64,000 nt of DNA from Vicinamibacterales bacterium (GTDB lineage: Bacteria; Acidobacteriota; Vicinamibacteria; Vicinamibacterales; JAMQPK01): the NCBI GenBank assembly GCA_963811435.1, contig CAWERD010000007.1, forward strand, positions 1,079,096 to 1,143,095. Direction: 5' to 3'. This document shows positions 136 through 57,657 of the stretch, piece by piece. The notes under the pieces are model-generated. The model had not been told where the DNA came from and did not search any database. It worked only from the letters and a program-made list of their open reading frames with translations. The position numbers and the translations under genes were made by a program. Positions within the stretch are counted from its first letter, which is position 1; every line of letters starts with the position of its first letter.

Positions 136-721
136 ATGAATCGAGGGGGAGTCGGGCGGATGCTGATCGCGAGTCTCCATCAGGGGATTTCCGATCTCAT
201 CCCGACGCGGCTCGAGTTCTACGAAAACTGGTTGCACGCCATCGGGATGCGCGACGGCAAAATCGGTCTCGCGCCGCTTGCCGCCGTGCTGAGTTTTCTC
301 CGGCAGGAGGGGGAGTCGTACGACGCTCGTCACTGCGCGCGCCGGGCGAGTATGCAGCGCAGTGGACGTTTGATAATCTGTCGCCGATCGAACGATCGGT
401 GATTCGGTCGCTGCCGCGTGATGATTCGCGCGCGCATGGCCCTGCAGCTGACCAAGCGCGTCGTGCGCGAACAGCTATGACGGCAGCCGCGCGGCGTCGA
501 AGCTGCGGGCTGGACAGGGCACAATTACCCTGCGCAGCTCGATCTTCTGCGCGGTGCGCGAGCCGTTCGACTGGCCATTGTGCGTCTTTTATTCAGCGGC
601 CCTGTTCGACCGCTTTGCGCTCGTGGGCGTCGGTGGACGAGGTGCGCGTGCACAGTCTGCCGGGGCGTCGGGGATGCCGGCGTGCATCATCGCGCTGAGC
701 GTGCCTCCGGATCAAAAATAG
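136..721 (+). CDS. V4R-like (4-vinyl reductase type) small-molecule-binding domain protein, interrupted by several frameshifts
   Basis: Pieces lie in three frames (ORFs 28..402, 399..698, 580..). They read LEFYENWLHAIGMRDGKIGLAPLAAVLSFLRQEGESY, then SIFCAVREPFDWPLCVFYSAALFDRFALVGV, then CRG.GDAGCIIALSV before TAG at 719..721. The Cys-rich C-terminal pattern resembles V4R domains. Family assignment is tentative. Confidence 0.35.
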
Positions 722-726
722 AACCC

Positions 727-2369
727 ATGCAGCGGTTCCACATTCCGGGTTCCGGGTTCCCGATTCTGGTTCTGGGTTCTCGCGCCCCTGTTCCTCGTTG
801 CGACCGCAGGTGCCAGCGCAACCCGCACAGCAGCCTGATGCCCGGTTCCTCGTCATCCCCTTCGAAAATCCCGGCTCACGAAACGCGCGTGTACTGGCTG
901 GGCGAAGCATCGGCCATGTTGCTGGCCGACAACCTGAACGCGCAGGGCAGCCGCGCGTATACGCGCGACGAGCGGCTCGATGCATTCGAGCAGCTTCAGC
1001 TTCCGCCGGTGGCCTCGCTGAGCCACGCGACCGTCATTCGGCTCGGCCAGGTCGTCGGCGCCACTCACGTCGTCATCGGATCGTTCACGCTGAGCGGCGG
1101 ACGGATCTCGGTGCGGGCGCAGAACATCAGGCTCGACAGCGGCCGCATGGAGAAGCGAGAGTCGTCGAGTCGGGCGCGCTCGAAGATCTGTTCGCGATCT
1201 TCGAGCGCGTCAGCCGACGCCTCTCTGGTGCAAGCGGGCCGGGCGGGCCTGCCGGACGACCCGCGTTGCCGGTGTTCGAGAGCTACATCAAGGGGCTGCT
1301 GGCGACCGCCACGACCGCGAAGGTCGGCTATCTCGAAGCGGCGCTCAAGCTCGATCCCGGCTTCGATCGCGCGCGTCTGGCGTTGTGGGCGGTGAACCAG
1401 GACAAGGGCAACGGTCAGGCCGCGCTGCGTGGCGGCCGCCGCAGTGCCCGAGACATCGCCGCTCTACGCGCGCGCCCGATTCAACGTCGCGTTGTCGCTT
1501 GATCCAGCTGAAGCGGCTGGACGATGCGTTCGCGACACTGAGAACGATGGCGGATCGCACGCCGATCGGCGACGCTGATGAATAACCTCGGCGTCATCCA
1601 GATGCGGCGTCCCGTCACGCCGCAGACAGGGCAGCGCCACGTATTACTTCAATCAGGCGCTCAAGCTCGATCAGGACGATCCCGACTACTACTTCAATCT
1701 CGGATACGCGTACTGGGCCGAAAAGGATGCGCAGTGGGCGATTTTCTGGCTGCGCGAGACGGTGCGCCGGAAGCCCGCCGACGGCGAGGCGCACGCCGTG
1801 CTTGCGGCCGCGCTGCAGGCGACCGGTTCAATCGCTGAGGCCGCGCGCGAGCGCGAGCTCGCGACGCAACTGTCATCGACGTATGCGGAGTGGGCGAAGA
1901 AACCGACGGGGATCGAGCCCATCCCTCGTGGATTGGAACGGATCAAGCCGTCATTGGACATCTCCCCGATGCGCCGCGCCGATTACGCGATTGCCGCAAC
2001 CGGGCAGCGCGAGCAGAGGGAGCTGGCCGCGTTTCATCTGGATCGCGGACGGCGGTTCTTCGAGCAGGGGAACAATACGGAAGCGGTGACCGAGCTCGGG
2101 CCGCGCCATCTACCTCGCGCCGTACGAGGCGCAGGCGCACCTGTTGATCGGCCGAATCTATCTGCGCACCGGCCAGACGCCTGCGGCGATCGATGCGTTC
2201 AAGATTGCGCTCTGGAGCCAGGAATCGGCCGAGGGCCGAATCGCGCTCGCGCAGGCATACCTGCAGACCAAGGACGAAGCGGCCGCGCGACGAGGCTCTG
2301 GAACGCGCGCTCGTTCTCGACCCAGGTTCTACCGAAGCCAGGGAGCTCTTGACCAGGCTCAAGCCATGA
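727..2369 (+). CDS. TolB-N-like plus TPR repeat protein, reading frame broken at least 5 times
   Basis: A continuous protein can be tiled from ORFs 580..1395, 798..1502, 1385..1585, 1762..2352 and 2144..2503. Segments include FLVIPFENPG..VYWLGEASAMLLADNL, KGLLATATTAKVGYLEAALKLDPGFDRARLALW, YYFNLGYAYWAEKDAQWAIFWLRETVRRKPADGEAHAVLAAAL and AQAHLLIGRIYLRTGQTPAAIDAFKIAL. It ends LTRLKP then TGA at 2367..2369. These are typical TPR helices. Confidence 0.6.
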
Positions 2370-3674
2370 CGACATACAAAAAAAGGGGTCAGACCCCGTT
2401 TTTGGTGCTCACGTTGATGATCGCGTGCCTCCCGGCGGTCGCGCATGCGCAGGTCGATCTACTCCGCCGAGGTCGACAGCATCATCCATCCGGTGTCGGC
2501 TGAGTTCATGATCGAGACGATCGCGCGGGCGGACGCCGAAAACGCCGCGCTCGTCATCTTCACGCTCCGCACGCCCGGCGGTCTCGTCGATTCGACTCGC
2601 GACATCGTCACGAAGATGATCGCCGCCAGGACGCCGATTGTGGTCTGCATCGGCCCATCGGGCAGCCGCGCGGCGTCGGCCGGCTTCATCATCACGATTG
2701 CGGCCGATGTGGCGGCGATGGCGCCGGGAACGCACATTGGCGCGGCGCACCCGGTCTCGGGTGGCGGTGCCGCGATGGACGAGACGAGCTCGAAGAAGGC
2801 GGCCGAAGATATCGCCGCTTACGTGCGCACGATTGCGGGCAAGCGTGGCCGGAACGTGCAGCTGGCTGAACAGGCGGTACTGCAGAGCAAGGCCTTTACC
2901 GAAGAGGAGGCGGCCAACGCCAAGCCGCCGCTCGTCGATCTCGTTGCAACCAGCCGCGACGATCTCATCAAGAAGCTGGATGGCCGGGCGGTGACCCGTT
3001 TCGACGGAGGAACCGCGACGTTGCGCACGGCCTCGGCAAAGGTCGTTTCGGTCGAGATGACCCTGCGGCAGCGCATCCTCAGCTCGATCGCGCATCCGAA
3101 CATCGCATACATCCTCTTGAGTCTTGGGACGCTCGGGCTCACGATCGAACTATGGAGCCCGGGTGCGGTCCTTCCTGGCGTGGTTGGCGGCCTGTCACTG
3201 CTGCTCGCGTTCTTCGCCTTGCAGGTACTGCCCATCAATTACGCCGGCCTGCTGCTCATGCTGTTCGGCCTGCTGCTGTTCGTGCTCGAGCTGAAGGTGA
3301 CGAGCTACGGCCTCCTCACCGTCGGCGGCATCATCAGCCTCATCTTCGGGTCGCTGATGCTCATCGATTCGCCCGCGCCGGAATTGCAATTGAGTGTTGG
3401 ACTCGTCGTGTCAGTCGTACTAGGCTTTACAGCGATCAGCGCGTTTCTCGTGCGCCTGGCACTGGCGGCGCGGGCGACCGCACCTGTGACGGGCGTCGAA
3501 GGGATGGTCGGGGAGATCGGCGAAGCGTTGACGCTGATTGCGCCTGGCGCGGCGGGCCGCACACGCGTCCACGGTGAGATCTGGAACGCGACAGCGAACG
3601 AGCCTATCGCGGGCGGCGCACGGGTGGTTGTGACAAATGTGAACGGCCTGACGTTGACCGTGCGGAAGGAGTGA
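2366..3674 (+). CDS. NfeD-family membrane-bound ClpP-class serine protease (frameshift near 2450 between signal peptide and mature part)
   Basis: ORF 2445..3674 has a ClpP-like domain ([52 protein letters not shown]), four or more TM helices and a C-terminal NfeD OB-fold. The signal peptide [29 protein letters not shown] lies in another frame from ATG 2366. It sits directly upstream of an SPFH gene, the classic NfeD-stomatin pair. Confidence 0.8.
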
Positions 3675-25771: not shown

Positions 25772-27044
25772 CTATCCCTTGCGGAAGACCACAATCCGGT
25801 TGGTGTTCGTCCCCTTCGAGTTGTTTCGCACTCCCCAGCAATTGGCGGTTTTGGTGAACTGCTGGGAGTTGATCACGACCAGAAGCGGCTCCAGTCCCGA
25901 GACGATACCGCACGGCAGCACGGCTTCCTCGAGCTTGACCTTTCCGCCGCGTACTTCGCCCACCTCGAAGGCCACGTGACCCCCGGGCCGCAGCACGCGG
26001 GCCAGCTCCTGAAACACGCTCGTCATAGCCGCCTGCCACTGGTCGACCTTGCGATGAATGGAAATCTTGACCGCGGAGGTGTCGATGTCGCAGAACCATC
26101 CGCGCAGCCAGTTGTCGCCGGCATAGTCGACCACGTCGAGGAATGGCGGCGAGGTGACCACCAGGCTCACCGTGCCCGCCTTGAGTTGCGGCGTCGAGTG
26201 GGCCGGACGCGTCAGGAGCGCGGCGCGTTGCGCCGACCGTAACAGCTTCGCGCGCGTCGTGCTGTCGCAATCGCGCAGCAGCGATCGGGTTTTTGTCGCA
26301 ATCAGCGTGCGGACGTCGCGGCGCGGCGGAACCTGCTTGCGCCGCGCGTTGATCTTCGTTTGCGCCTCCAGCGACGCGGCCTGATTGGGCGGCAGCGTGT
26401 AGACGGAAAAGAAACCGGGGGAGTGACCGGTCAGCCGATTGACGGCGACCATTCGAATCCAGCGGTCGACGCCGTCGAGCGTGCCGCGGCTGGCTCGCGT
26501 CAGCAGGTACTCACGCAGGGCGCAGATTTCCCCGAGCGTGTCGGGATGGTAGAAGACTTCCAGCTCTTCCGGATACGACGCCGCCGAGGTCGAGATCCAG
26601 CGACTCGAGCCTTTCCGCAACCTCGTCGGCGGTCGGAGGAGCCAGGCGTGGCTGTGCGAGGACTGCGCTCAGCGGGTTGATGTCGCAGCCGACGGGCGTT
26701 CGCCCCGCGAGCGCAGCTTCGAGAATCGTCGTCCCGCGGCCCATGAACGGGTCGTACACGATGTCGCCCGGCGCCGTGAACCGATCGATGAAGAACCGCG
26801 GAAGCTGGGGCTTGAAGCACGCGCGGTAGGACACCTCGTGCAGGCTGTGTGCGGCGCGCTGCCGGCTCGTCCAGAACTCGTTGACGAATGTCTCGACGAC
26901 GATTGGCCGCGATTTCGCCAGCCCGACGCTCGTGATGGCGCGCGTGGTCGGCCGGCCATTCCATTCGAACGCGCGCAGCTCGCGGACAATCGATGGCTGT
27001 GGCGAAGGCGACGCTGGGAGACGCTGGGGGGCGCTTGATCGCAT
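25772..27044 (-). CDS. Solitary SAM-dependent DNA (N4-C or N6-A) methyltransferase, frameshift near 26585
   Basis: ORF 26511..27044 carries motif I (DIVYDPFMGRGTTILEAALAGRTPVGCDINP). ORF 25772..26620 carries motif IV (VSLVVTSPPFLDVVDY) and RVLRPGGHVAF. The two join as ERLESLDLDL/SAASYPEELEVFYHP. No nuclease-like ORF is adjacent. Confidence 0.7.
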
Positions 27045-27049
27045 AGATA

Positions 27050-27125
27050 GCTCTGGGGGTTCGCGGGTTCGTCAGGTTCATTTACGAACCGACGAACCGT
27101 TGTGTGAACCCTGCCTGAGCTATCT
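27050..27125. repeat. Nested inverted repeat between methyltransferase start and upstream gene stop
   Basis: The outer 11-bp inverted repeat is atagatagctc .. gagctatctat. The inner arms are tandem GGTTCG units, ggttcgcgggttcgtcaggttca / gaaccgacgaaccgttgtgtgaacc. The same unit appears in the array at 32326..32378. Confidence 0.7.
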
Positions 27126-29555
27126 ATCGGCAGAAGTGTGCAGAAGTACAGCGGCCGCCAAATAGATGGCGCCTCCGGTCAGCAGCGTGACCGAAAAGCC
27201 CCAGTTCATGGCGATGAACACGGCCAGCGTGGCGCCAATCACCGAGAGCGCGCCGTTCATGCCCCACGCCCAAGGTACGAGGGATGAACCACTTACGGTC
27301 ATCAGGCGGATGCCGGCAGGCAACGGGATGCCCATCAGCACTCCCGCCGGGGCAATGAGCAGGACGGTCAGGGCAATCCTGGCGCCACGGCTGGCGCTGA
27401 TGGCAGACCGGATGATCGGTGGCAGTGCGACGATGCCCAGAATCGCGACCGCGACCACTCCCAGCATGATGAGCGTCACCGTGCCACGCAGGCGGTCGTC
27501 AGTGATGCGACGGCTGACCAGGCTGCCGATGCCCGTCCCCAGCAGCACCGAAAACAGCGTCACGGTGAGCGAGTAAACAGGATGGCCGAGCAACAGCACG
27601 AAGCGCTGAAGCAGGGCCACCTCGATCATCATGAACCCGGCGCCCAGCATGCCGAAATACGCCAGCCACAGCGGCCAGCGGCTGCCGCGAAGCTCGCTGC
27701 CCGAGAACACGAGCGGACCGACCACGAAGAGCGTGACGAAGGTGGCCGAGATCGCCATCAGTGTCATGAGCGCGCTGAGGCCGTTGCCGAACAGCATGCT
27801 GCGGCCGAAGGCCGTATGAAACTGATCCTTGATCTTCGTCGTGTGAAAGAAGAACGGGCGATTATCGGTCGTGGGCTCGACATCGTGGTGGTACGCGTCG
27901 TAGAACGCCTGTCGATCTTTGGCGAGCACGAGCTTCGCGTAGTCGTTGGTCGCGTCGGTCTGCCCGGGAGCATAAAGGACGGTGAAGCCGAGGCCGGCTG
28001 ACGTCGCGCGAAGCTGTGCGACGTCCTGCGCGCTGAACGGGGTCTTCTTCAGCAGGAACGTCGCAACGCGATCCTGCTGCACGATGGCGATGTGATCGGC
28101 CGCCGAGCATCCGCGGCTTTCGCACGCCGCCTGCGCCAGCGACACGAGGCGCAGTCCGTCGAACACCCATCGCGTAATGGTCAGCATGCCGCGATCGGTG
28201 AGGTGGTCGTAGTAGTCCTCGAACGCTTCTTTGGTGTAGAGCGTGTTCTCGGTCAGCGTGTAGGCGCCGGCTGCGGTTGCGGCCCAGGTATCGACGAGCG
28301 AGGCCTGGATGATGTCGTAGCGCGACTGGGATCGCCGGATGAAGCTGCGCCCGTCATCCACGACAACGTTGACGTTCGGGTTCTGGTAGATCGATCCCGA
28401 GAAGTCTCGGAACTGTCCGAGCATGACGTCGTTGGCGATGATCGGGTTCACCTCGACGCCTTCGACACGGTTTGCGCCAAACACGAGCGCGGTCAGCAGA
28501 TCGCGTCCACCCCCCGGGCCGATGACGAGCGCCGTGATGGGGTCTGACCCCGAGGCGCTGGTTTTCGCGGAATCCGCGCCATTTTCCTCTTGGGGGTCTG
28601 ACCCCCGTACAGTACCGGGGTCAGACCCCACGAGGTGGAACGCGAGCCCGGTGAGCTCGTACTTCAGATACTCGACCTTCGACAGATCACCATCGAAACG
28701 GACGATCGGAGTCGACGCCGCGGAATCGATGTCCATGAACCGGGTTTCCGGTTTTGCGCCGTCGTATTTCGAGCTCAACGACCAGTCGCCGTGCGAACGG
28801 TCGTACACGGCCACGCGTGAGAACGAATTCCACTTCGCAAAGAGCACCGTGTCTTCGGCGTGCCCCTTTGTGTTGCTCACATCGAAGGGCGCCGTTCCCG
28901 CCAGCTGCAGCGCACCTGGTATGCCCACAGCCAGTGCCGCGATCGTCGCCGTGCGGGCCATCGTCCTGGCCGGTGAGAAGAGCAGCGCCGCCGCGCCGCC
29001 GAGCACCGCCGCGAGCAGCACCACGCCAGGCGCGCCGAACCGGTTCAGCAGCGGCAGCAGGAGAAGGCATCCAGCCGCTGCACCGATGAGGTCGGCGCCA
29101 TACACGATGTTCACGTGCCTTCGCAGGCGCGTGATCGCGAGGGAAATGACGGCGCCGCCGCTGAAAAACGGCAGAGCCGCCAGCGTGTAGATGGCGATCA
29201 TCTTCACGAGGTTTTCGTGCGAGTAGTTGAGCCCGACACGGATGCGCACGAGCGCCGCGAGCGACAGAACCGTGACGCCCGCGAAGAGGAGCGAGTGTGA
29301 TGTGAGCAGGTTCGCCGTCGGGCGCCGGTCGAATACCCGGCGCATGATGTAGACGTACACACCGCTCGCGCTCAGCCCGAAGAGGGCAATCGAGATGGCA
29401 AGAAACGCGAAGTGGTAGTACATCGTGACCGAGAAAATGCGCGTGAGCGCCAATTCGATCATCAGGATGGCGCCCGCGATTGCGCCGACGCCGACGAGCG
29501 TTCGAGCGAAGCTGGCGCGCGACAGTTCCTCGTGGTGCTCAGCGTGTAACGACAT
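27120..29555 (-). CDS. Fused MFS-like membrane domain / spermidine synthase-like protein
   Basis: 811 aa with about 7 N-terminal TM helices. The central aminopropyltransferase-like domain reads VIGPGGGRDLL and YDIIQASLVDTWAATAAGAYTLTEN. About 6 C-terminal TM helices follow. Confidence 0.8.
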   Translation of the reverse strand: MSLHAEHHEELSRASFARTLVGVGAIAGAILMIELALTRIFSVTMYYHFAFLAISIALFGLSASGVYVYIMRRVFDRRPTANLLTSHSLLFAGVTVLSLAALVRIRVGLNYSHENLVKMIAIYTLAALPFFSGGAVISLAITRLRRHVNIVYGADLIGAAAGCLLLLPLLNRFGAPGVVLLAAVLGGAAALLFSPARTMARTATIAALAVGIPGALQLAGTAPFDVSNTKGHAEDTVLFAKWNSFSRVAVYDRSHGDWSLSSKYDGAKPETRFMDIDSAASTPIVRFDGDLSKVEYLKYELTGLAFHLVGSDPGTVRGSDPQEENGADSAKTSASGSDPITALVIGPGGGRDLLTALVFGANRVEGVEVNPIIANDVMLGQFRDFSGSIYQNPNVNVVVDDGRSFIRRSQSRYDIIQASLVDTWAATAAGAYTLTENTLYTKEAFEDYYDHLTDRGMLTITRWVFDGLRLVSLAQAACESRGCSAADHIAIVQQDRVATFLLKKTPFSAQDVAQLRATSAGLGFTVLYAPGQTDATNDYAKLVLAKDRQAFYDAYHHDVEPTTDNRPFFFHTTKIKDQFHTAFGRSMLFGNGLSALMTLMAISATFVTLFVVGPLVFSGSELRGSRWPLWLAYFGMLGAGFMMIEVALLQRFVLLLGHPVYSLTVTLFSVLLGTGIGSLVSRRITDDRLRGTVTLIMLGVVAVAILGIVALPPIIRSAISASRGARIALTVLLIAPAGVLMGIPLPAGIRLMTVSGSSLVPWAWGMNGALSVIGATLAVFIAMNWGFSVTLLTGGAIYLAAAVLLHTSADR
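28539..28629. repeat. 91-bp block with three GGGGTCWGACCCC palindromes, in frame inside the spermidine-synthase-like CDS
   Basis: Copies lie at 28539..28551, 28593..28605 and 28617..28629, plus an inner cgcggaatccgcg palindrome. The block is translated as VGSDPGTVRGSDPQEENGADSAKTSASGSDPIT, immediately before the GPGGGRD SAM loop. Confidence 0.85.
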
Positions 29556-36009: not shown

Positions 36010-36555
36010 ATGAGAGCAGTCTTTGGCGCACTTGCGGGAGCCGTCGCAGTCGGTGCGATGCTGGTGTCATACAACCTCGGCGAGCGCCAGGCATTCGATC
36101 GCGCATTGATGCCGGCGATGCCTGCGACCCAGATGGTCATCGGGCCGGATGGGATTGCGAGGCCATACGCCGTGCAGGCGGGTCAGACCGCTCTCGGGCA
36201 GCCCTTCACCGGGCAATCGGCCTGGGCGCCTTACGGCACGATGACACCGGGAACCATGGTTCCGTACGGCTATCAGAACCCGGTCTATCAGCAGGGGGCG
36301 TACCCGGTCCAGACGCAATATGTCACCGATCGTCCTGTCGCACAGCCGACGGTGCGTCGTGTTTCGACGCAGCGCGTCGTCTCGTCTGAAACAAGCCCCC
36401 GGCGCACGTGGCAGAAAAGCGCGCTGTTGATTGGCGGCTCGGCCGGTGCGGGCGCCGGTCTGGGCGCCTTGATGGGCGGTAAGAAGGGCGCGCTTGCGGG
36501 CGCGGCGATCGGCGGCGGCGCGGCGGCTATCTACGATCAGGTGAAACGCCGCTAG
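36010..36555 (+). CDS. Hypothetical membrane-anchored protein with C-terminal glycine-zipper
   Basis: 181 aa with an N-terminal TM helix. The C-terminus is LIGGSAGAGAGLGALMGGKKGALAGAAIGGGAAAIY. Confidence 0.5.
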   Translation: MRAVFGALAGAVAVGAMLVSYNLGERQAFDRALMPAMPATQMVIGPDGIARPYAVQAGQTALGQPFTGQSAWAPYGTMTPGTMVPYGYQNPVYQQGAYPVQTQYVTDRPVAQPTVRRVSTQRVVSSETSPRRTWQKSALLIGGSAGAGAGLGALMGGKKGALAGAAIGGGAAAIYDQVKRR

Positions 36556-57595: not shown

Positions 57596-57657
57596 GGGGT
57601 CAGACCCCATTTTTTGTTGATTCCGATCGCCTTGGACAAAAAATGGGGTCTGACCCC
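57596..57657. repeat. 62-bp mini-element with perfect 21-bp terminal inverted repeats containing the GGGGTCWGACCCC core
   Basis: ggggtcagaccccattttttg (57596..57616) is the exact reverse complement of caaaaaatggggtctgacccc (57637..57657). It overlaps the annotated 5' end of miaA. Confidence 0.85.

Follow-up and report, generated by a model that had tools for sequence, protein, structure and literature searches.

How does a short DNA palindrome come to be translated, three times over and in frame, within a protein, and what keeps it there? This question is raised by a 91-bp block at positions 28539..28629 (minus strand) of a 64-kb stretch of DNA from a member of the Vicinamibacterales (the whole stretch analyzed is designated the window, or WIN). 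The block is located within an 811-codon gene (27120..29555, minus strand) that encodes N- and C-terminal multi-helix membrane domains around a SpeE-like soluble domain; it contains three copies of a 13-bp palindrome, GGGGTCWGACCCC, each of which is translated as GSDP. We favor the explanation that the block is probably an in-frame cluster, tolerated by the protein, of a palindromic repeat that is otherwise extragenic and resembles a terminator; the DNA/RNA palindromes, not the peptide, would be what is maintained. The window was compared with 120 homologous proteins (P numbers) and about 130 orthologous loci (related loci have L numbers); the related loci and the window together provide 2.4 Mb of DNA for a census of the repeat family. 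The closest loci are from metagenome-assembled genomes (MAGs) of Vicinamibacterales (Acidobacteriota) and from soil metagenome contigs.

A palindromic block in a disordered loop

The window contains six matches to GGGGTCWGACCCC; 0.05 ± 0.22 are expected from 100 dinucleotide-preserving shuffles of the window, none of which reached six. By pattern search, three of the matches are in the block, that is, two copies of GGGGTCTGACCCC (28539-28551 and 28593-28605) and one copy of GGGGTCAGACCCC (28617-28629); the remaining copies are at 2385, 57596, and 57645. On the coding strand, the layout of the block is pal-11 nt-pal-41 nt-pal (where pal is the 13-mer). The block extends from the last base of V309 to P339 and encodes G310-P339 (GSDPGTVRGSDPQEENGADSAKTSASGSDP), so that the open reading frame (ORF) reads ...ELTGLAFHLV-GSDP-GTVR-GSDP-QEENGADSAKTSAS-GSDP-ITALVIGPGGGRDLL. 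Two of the 13-mers and the 11-nt linker between them (CGTACAGTACC) form a 37-nt compound palindrome with 18-nt arms (28593..28629; GSDP-GTVR-GSDP on the coding strand); this 18+1+18 inverted repeat is 94% complementary and is the dominant hairpin of the RNA fold. The third 13-mer on the coding strand (28539..28551) encodes the GSDP at residues 336-339, and the outer copies of the block pair as 15-nt arms that are 100% complementary. The 41-nt spacer (QEENGADSAKTSAS; 28552..28592, minus strand) has a palindrome of its own, CGCGGAATCCGCG, at 28566-28578. The region of the block folds far better than its shuffles, both as RNA (z = −5.0) and as DNA (z = −4.8). Five of the six reading frames of the 13-mer are open and one contains a stop codon, so the 13-mer is read through as GSDP. 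Thus, the three in-frame 13-mers with their GSDP repeats and the inner palindrome, all described in the first-pass annotation of this DNA, are confirmed, as is the position of the block just N-terminal to a glycine-rich loop: four residues (I340-T341-A342-L343) separate the end of the block from the GxGxG loop (V344-I345-G346-P347-G348-G349-G350).

The best Foldseek matches of the host protein are structures of SpeE (e.g., 1uir, E = 4e-8); the match to Pfam family PF01564 is weak (residues 377-459; 19.6 bits, under the cut-off of 22.9). The protein resembles a membrane-bound spermidine synthase, with a predicted SpeE-like fold. In the AlphaFold model, the mean predicted local distance difference test (pLDDT) score is 83, and the helical membrane domains are residues 13-218 and 592-810. 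Residues 313-336, located between a helix (301-309) and a strand (340-345), have pLDDT values <50. The phmmer alignment to 1uir (the Thermus SpeE) begins at 'DPITALVIGPGGG'; therefore, the block fills the short loop that precedes Rossmann strand beta-1. The proposal that the block is a tolerated and disordered insertion in a surface loop is supported by this predicted structure.

As regards length, the family varies mainly in the interval between YELTxLAYHL and F(T/S)ALVIGPGGGRD. In its most common state, this interval is a linker of 5-7 residues (VERPGGF, VEQPGGF, MNRSVGF, or KxPGF), which is also found in relatives that share 82-84% identity; the residues that flank the block are invariant. 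No homologous segment of similar length was seen in the orthologues without palindromes, which have the short linker, so the 31-residue segment is an insertion, as had been suggested. The accompanying idea that the insertion might be unique to this genome does not hold: at least eight independent assemblies, with proteins that share 77-89% identity, hold one to four palindromes at the same codon, and the insertion is both old and common to a clade. The number of palindromes is one in L186, two in L188, three in WIN, L002, L081, L082, L162, and L089, and four in L163; in every carrier the first copy begins at the identical codon (GT followed by GGGGTC).

The pal-11-pal-41-pal architecture, which is 162 nt from anchor to anchor, is found in WIN, L002, L081, L082, L161, and L162 and, in decayed form, in L001; these sequences are from NCBI MAGs and from JGI and ENA assemblies. 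The layout in L089 is the mirror image, pal-41-pal-11-pal. Inversion of the whole block was ruled out as its origin, since the L089 spacer aligns with the spacers of the WIN clade in the same orientation only (mean score 5.3, vs −6.0 when inverted and −7.0 ± 2.1 for the null). The shared core is, therefore, pal-41-pal, and the third copy with its 11-nt linker is on opposite sides in the WIN and L089 lineages. Other carriers have other forms: L186 has a single copy (HLV-GSDP-FTALV), L187 has A7 and T5 tracts in frame (GAAAAAAAGGGGTCTGACCCTTTTT, translated as EKKGSDPF), and L163 and L188 retain ACAAAAAATG-type flanks that resemble window positions 57636-57657. The in-frame tracts and the retained flanks support an origin of the block from the extragenic members of the family that are described below.

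The first-pass annotation had also raised the possibility of an assembly artefact; in a more general form, the block would be an artefact of assembly or sequencing (e.g., a chimeric or misassembled repeat). Long-read MAGs do have indels exactly at the block: L073 (10903-10995) has an extra C in the 11-nt linker, that is, a 1-nt insertion, and the gene calls for P0131 and P0132 are split there; these breaks are likely indel errors (nanopore) at GGGG/CCCC hairpins. However, independent short-read assemblies (JGI, ENA, and Logan) and NCBI MAGs share the same architecture, length, and frame, and the short-read JGI/ENA assemblies and the long-read MAGs agree on the 162 nt, so an artefact in the window is rejected and the probability that we assign to this explanation in general is negligible. 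Short-term phase or length variation, also proposed previously, is unsupported: in one cluster of proteins at 90% identity, all 13 of the 13 full-length members share one loop length, and thus there is no sign that length or phase varies rapidly. The loop is a hot spot over long time scales.

Conservation of the DNA palindromes rather than of the peptide

The carriers are sufficiently divergent that conservation of the DNA can be distinguished from conservation of the peptide. Outside the loop, the identity at four-fold sites between carriers is 0.46-0.64 (0.46-0.57 except for the pair L161-L001, 0.64), that is, these sites are essentially saturated. Of the four-fold sites within the loop, 12 belong to codons whose amino acid does not change in the clade; 11 of these are in the palindromes and linker, and the remaining one is in the spacer. 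Pairwise identity at the 12 sites averages 0.85, vs a background of 0.52, and only 1 of 100,000 resamples was as high (P about 1e-5). The conserved codons are rare in the gene set (TCT 3%, TCA 8%, ACT 3%, GTA 7%, GGG 17%, and CCC 20%), so codon bias cannot explain their conservation. The DNA of the 37-nt palindrome is almost invariant across WIN, L002, L081, L082, L161, and L162; the only four-fold site within it that varies freely is the apex of the hairpin (ACT/ACA/ACG). The third copy (28539..28551 in the window) is kept in L002, L081, L082, and L162; in L161 it is GGGATCAGATCCC, a compensated double synonymous change, and in L001 it is decayed. L001 also has GLDP (Ser to Leu) together with synonymous decay of its palindromes. 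The length of the 41-nt spacer is fixed, although its DNA and peptide have diverged among the members of the clade, and its inner palindrome (CGCGGAATCCGCG) is specific to the window and is absent from the relatives compared. A GANTC site (GAATC/GATTC) in the spacer is kept in most carriers (28570-28574 in the window; L001, L002, L082, L089, and L161).

Synonymous conservation at saturation, in rare codons, implies selection or sequence-specific drive on the DNA or RNA. From the pattern of substitutions, the constraint acts on the palindrome, as a hairpin or as a site with dyad symmetry, and not on GSDP. If instead GSDP were a functional peptide repeat (e.g., a motif for a protease, for binding, or for modification within a flexible linker) and the DNA palindrome were incidental, the retention of the peptide in most carriers would be expected; but the conservation of synonymous sites, with rare codons, would not. 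In addition, genes elsewhere translate the same DNA as GVRP, GQTP, or GLTP, L001 tolerates GLDP, the motif is missing altogether from close orthologues, and AlphaFold predicts no structure at the GSDP segment. We consider a functional peptide very improbable. For annotation, this segment is not to be treated as a protein motif, and the block is a source of frameshifted gene calls in long-read MAGs.

The repeat family at gene boundaries

The 2.4 Mb of DNA contain 38 perfect copies of the palindrome (with any central base), compared with ~0.3 expected (estimated from GC content); 25 of the 38 are within this loop. Twelve GGGGTCWGACCCC copies are outside the loop, and for at least 10 of them the location is a gene boundary: immediately before a lolC/ftsX-like start and after lysS (L162, L003, and L008), just downstream of the orthologous gene (L031 and L108), or intergenic (L157 and the window). 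Beyond these 12, a further copy is located between convergent genes in L188 (at 20947), and 12-mer versions are found upstream of the lolC-like start in L001, L006, L083, L161, and L013.

In the window, one such copy (2385..2397; A7-GGGGTCAGACCCC-GT5) is located between an ORF that ends at 2352 and the NfeD gene (2445..3674) and has the pattern of a terminator on both strands. The other two form a 62-bp inverted doublet (57596..57657; GGGGTCAGACCCCATTTTTTGT ... ACAAAAAATGGGGTCTGACCCC) between a TonB-like region and miaA. The flanks of the three extragenic copies in the window are aaaaaaa and gttttt, agataa and atttttt, and aaaaaat and tttacc. A scan with a terminator consensus matches 2385 on both strands, 57596 on the plus strand, and 57645 on the minus strand; overall, the scan shows no enrichment relative to shuffles. 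From these flanks, the extragenic copies look like the hairpins of bidirectional intrinsic terminators. The doublets are typically inverted, with A and then T as central bases, and cap longer inverted repeats; inverted A..T doublets include that in the window (57596-57657), L157, an element of ~100 bp in the lysS-lolC spacer, and most of the doublets on viral contigs.

The earlier description of these copies as lying at gene boundaries with A/T tracts stands with respect to location, but not all of them are strictly non-coding: those at 57645 and 2385 overlap probable 5′ coding ends. The 57645 copy is inside the longest miaA ORF (TTG at 57614), where it is read as WGLTP; no ATG, GTG, or TTG is found between the palindrome and the P-loop (GPTATGKS), so the repeat and the 5′ coding end (or the ribosome-binding region) of miaA probably overlap. 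Upstream of the NfeD gene, a signal-peptide-like frame translates the 2385 copy as RGQTP. That reading (2369-2503) is in a different frame from the NfeD gene (2445-3674, plus strand), which suggests either a frameshift or indel near 2445-2470 or a mis-called start.

The lysS-lolC/ftsX spacer element is an inverted repeat of ~100 bp that is capped by the palindrome and A/T tracts and is conserved directly upstream of the lolC-like start in the relatives (L083 4909-4998, L161 236-325, L006 4771-4862, L001 from 4721, L162 3341-3430, L003 5537, and L008 5753). With respect to MITEs, which are defined by terminal inverted repeats and a target-site duplication, this element and the 57596-57657 doublet have inverted ends of 22-35 nt and no recognizable target-site duplication. 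The window does not have the element: the lysS stop and the lolC start abut at ~34608. A near-match at 36179 was considered as the orthologous lolC-upstream copy and ruled out; it is in coding sequence and is probably due to chance. In other lineages, heptamer arrays are found at the lysS-lolC spot.

Copies with a different sequence occupy similar locations. A co-varying 'dialect', GGTGTCAGACACC, is present in other lineages (L035 12442-12517, L106 12404/12432, L122 6900, and L040 10005), with four tandem copies at a 21-nt period in L035, and L108 (3354-3379) has GGGGTCAGACGGGGGTCTGACCCC at the equivalent place. These sites are in the spacer that immediately follows the orthologous gene, at a distance of 10-25 nt from the ATGGGCATCAAAGAACG start of the next gene.

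The 13-mer is also found within other genes. L060 (8649) and L068 (146) have perfect copies inside candidate ORFs with high GC content at third codon positions, which may be additional in-frame cases; the L060 copy would be translated as IRGLTPT, in what is possibly a VanZ-like membrane protein. On IMG/VR contigs with 38-67% GC, the same 13-mer is found mostly as A..T doublets or with A/T tracts. In L166 (IMGVR_UViG_GVMAG-S-404869-41_000001), four in-frame copies (1364-1487; ORF 1318..2256, minus strand; RGQTP) are in the part of an RNase R (RNB+S1) gene that encodes the C-terminal tail, which is rich in lysine; the gene that directly follows encodes a SpoU-family rRNA methylase. The contig is labeled as a giant-virus MAG; both genes look bacterial, and their order matches rnr-rlmB, an enterobacterial gene order. 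In L165, an A4-pal-T4 ... A4-pal-T4 doublet (2063-2104; ORF 611..2326, plus strand) is in frame (GVRP, GSDP) after the Pfam Portal_Mu domain in the portal gene of a Mu-like phage; further copies with A/T tracts are located between genes on this contig and on the related contigs L170 and L173. A megablast search of INPHARED with a motif-rich viral contig gave no match, Rfam gave no family at the gathering threshold in the whole window (with noise only in 28400-28760), and literature searches for the 13-mer returned no relevant paper and, for Vicinamibacteria with palindromic repeats, only unrelated titles and abstracts.

The 13-mer is a new family, although of a kind already known from intragenic clusters of repetitive extragenic palindromic (REP) sequences and from Rickettsia palindromic elements (RPEs). 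Like REPs, it is a small dispersed palindrome that is mainly extragenic, downstream of or between genes, often in inverted dimers with a short spacer that fold into larger hairpins (57596/57645 A..T, 28593/28617, L157, the lysS-lolC element, and the viral contigs). A minority of REP dimers and groups are within ORFs, where they encode 20-30 residues and are presumed to be neutral in flexible linkers (Di Nocera et al., 2013, PMC3733652). However, the unit described here is a perfect 13-bp palindrome (6+1+6), whereas REPs are imperfect palindromes of 20-40 bp with an unpaired GTAG/CGTC tag; no consistent GTAG or CGTC was found among the 38 copies, and none flanks the window copies. The intragenic 13-mers also differ from REPs in being conserved at the nucleotide level across saturated divergence. 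Membership in the REP family is, therefore, not established. REPINs (Bertels and Rainey, 2011, PMC3116915) are likewise two inverted copies with a spacer that form one long hairpin (compare 57596-57657, L157, and the lysS-lolC element), and are vertically inherited and persist for long times; they are, however, mobilized by RAYT transposases (no RAYT was found here, with no search aimed at one), and the 13-mer doublets also differ in that each arm is itself a perfect palindrome and the spacers are unrelated between loci.

RPEs, according to PMC10969869 (citing Ogata et al., 2000, 2002), are palindromic repeats that are inserted in frame in unrelated genes and are translated. The likeness is an in-frame insertion that is compatible with the fold; in our case the ORF is intact, the loop is disordered, and the flanking residues are invariant. 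By the same account, RPEs are ~100-150 bp in length, are found in Rickettsia, and have a conserved peptide of their own, in contrast to a 13-bp unit in a 91-bp block with a non-conserved spacer; the 13-mer is, moreover, mostly extragenic, belongs to a free-living soil acidobacterium, and is found also in phage and other bacterial contigs. The SPRITE of Streptococcus pneumoniae, from the same text, is similar in that a stereotyped hairpin with a T-tract is repeated at gene ends; it is longer and species-specific, and in-frame intragenic clusters were not found in the PMC10969869 text searched.

An alternative to a local function is molecular drive, in which the 13-mer is maintained as a DNA uptake sequence or because repair or gene conversion is biased toward it, a proposal made for the HIP1 palindrome of cyanobacteria; a motif of this type builds up at any site that tolerates it, poorly constrained codons among them. 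Drive would explain why orthologous sites in the loop and upstream of lolC retain the exact sequence, and not base pairing alone, across saturated divergence. It would also be consistent with the terminator-like inverted pairs, since inverted pairs of the Neisseria DNA uptake sequence (DUS) double as terminator-like hairpins. The resemblance extends to coding sequence: uptake sequences are short exact motifs that favor poorly conserved positions in ORFs, where they are read as fixed tri- or tetrapeptides (Findlay and Redfield, 2009, PMC2817400). However, DUS and the uptake signal sequence (USS) are one to two orders of magnitude more abundant than the 13-mer, which, in addition, is palindromic: the H. 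influenzae genome has 1,471 copies (Findlay and Redfield, 2009, PMC2817400), and known uptake sequences occur at ~1 per kb, compared with about 1 per 10-20 kb in the window (six copies at three loci in 64 kb) and fewer in the relatives (12 extra-loop copies in 2.4 Mb). The co-varying dialects and compensated changes, as well as the presence of the motif in phage contigs of 38-67% GC, also weigh against drive, and we consider it improbable.

The loop as a sink for hairpin DNA

The loop contains hairpin-forming inserts in many other lineages of the Vicinamibacteria. Of 46 distinct loop inserts that are 60 nt or longer, 21 have a fold with z < −3 (median of the 46, −2.9), compared with 2 of 90 in the other variable region of the protein and 0 of 52 random coding windows. 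Perfect inverted repeats (non-overlapping arms of at least 12 nt) were counted as well: the ~13 kb of loop DNA contain 13, the 1.3 Mb of deep coding DNA contain 42, and the 1.06 Mb elsewhere contain 133. The inserts, which are located between YELTxLAYHL and FTALVIGPGGGRD (L001-L163; e.g., L032 5050-5380, L135, L109, L036, and L007 9833-9977), are unrelated in sequence and include the GSDP palindromes and inverted heptamer arrays; the latter are translated as, for example, RDSGFGI...NPKSPIPNP, GARGSGLGA...APSPQSPAP, and EGRGEREEG...LTPRPSP. The loop is a site-specific sink for hairpin DNA. When the inserts were compared with their own 20-kb flanks using 10-14-mers, sharing was 0.24 per 10 kb with their own flanks and 0.16 with those of others (k = 13), and only L024 was clear; this k-mer sharing is uninformative, so we do not claim that the inserts mirror the repeat repertoire of each genome.

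In the leading alternative to a tolerated insertion, selection acts on the hairpin itself at this exact position, whether as a structure of the mRNA or as a dyad in the DNA to which a protein binds. Such a hairpin might cause ribosome or RNA polymerase pausing between domains, regulated internal termination or processing, or a barrier that increases stability, and lineages would recruit whichever hairpin repeat their genome offers. The frequency of stable folds among inserts with unrelated sequences, the abundance of inverted repeats in loop DNA relative to deep coding DNA, and the conservation of the palindromes at the nucleotide level are in agreement with this explanation. Against it, the most common state of the interval is the short linker with no hairpin, including in the close relatives L003-L005 and L083-L085, so a hairpin is dispensable; the palindromes are decaying in L001; and none of the three intragenic window copies is followed on either strand by the T-run (U-tract) of an intrinsic terminator or accompanied by another functional signal. 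The same palindrome in the disordered tails of unrelated proteins also fits tolerance better than a function specific to this site. We consider a selected hairpin unlikely, although it is the explanation that competes most directly with a tolerated insertion.

For the tolerated cluster that we favor, the following history would account for the observations. The block is a three-copy cluster of the dispersed 13-bp palindrome GGGGTCWGACCCC, resembling a REP dimer with one additional unit; the usual home of the repeat is gene ends, with A- and T-tracts and often as inverted A..T doublets. In an ancestor of a sublineage of the Vicinamibacterales, the repeat may have entered the short linker that connects the N-terminal beta domain/helix to Rossmann strand beta-1; this linker is predicted to be disordered and would be tolerant of any length. 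The resident copy would later have been elaborated, first perhaps to the pal-41 nt-pal doublet that is common to carriers and then by addition of the third copy and 11-nt linker on opposite sides in two lineages. The peptide would be a passenger; the nucleic acid palindrome would be maintained through purifying selection (on a hairpin or on a site with dyad symmetry) or through sequence-specific drive in copying or repair. The proposal in the first-pass annotation that a structured or mobile, normally non-coding repeat landed in frame in a coding region and was tolerated in a surface loop is, in this respect, supported.

Several observations weigh against this explanation. A purely neutral, tolerated insertion fails to explain perfect palindromes at saturated synonymous divergence, so some maintaining force is required. 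The loop is ~30-fold enriched in hairpin inserts over other coding DNA and the second variable region has almost none, so a permissive loop alone may be insufficient. Neither a transposase (with no systematic search for a Y1 transposase) nor a target-site duplication nor a GTAG/CGTC tag of the REP type was seen, so we infer mobility from distribution only. The family is sparse (the window has about three loci in its 64 kb, and the relatives have fewer), and the neighbor-joining tree that was used to order the events is not robust.

A more far-reaching possibility, which we regard as doubtful, is that the 13-mer is a sequence-specifically recognized signal, shared by distant bacteria and phages and compatible with coding, and also that the loop is a genuine landing pad or a selected hairpin site. 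If true, this would explain the convergence of unrelated hairpin repeats on the loop in many lineages, and GGGGTCWGACCCC would be maintained by a protein that recognizes it (e.g., a transposase, a factor for repair or uptake, or one that binds RNA or DNA).

The best-documented in-frame palindromic repeats are those of Rickettsia, and intragenic REPs are known from scattered cases in other organisms; such repeats are now extended to soil Acidobacteriota, and the Acidobacteriota hosts of the 13-mer are abundant in soil and mostly uncultured. The loop provides a natural experiment in which one orthologous codon position has 0, 1, 2, 3, or 4 copies depending on lineage; with it, both the upkeep of a repeat by function, drive, or repair and the reason why one loop recurrently collects hairpin DNA become testable questions.

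The conserved downstream neighbor of the host gene (window 25772-27044, minus strand) encodes an N6/N4 DNA methyltransferase (PF01555; ~422 aa in relatives), a family that includes CcrM; in view of the GANTC site in the 41-nt spacer, a link between the two was considered, and we make no claim for it. In the window, this gene is split into overlapping ORFs in different frames (26511..27044 and 25772..26620), that is, it is either a frameshifted pseudogene or the result of a sequencing indel.

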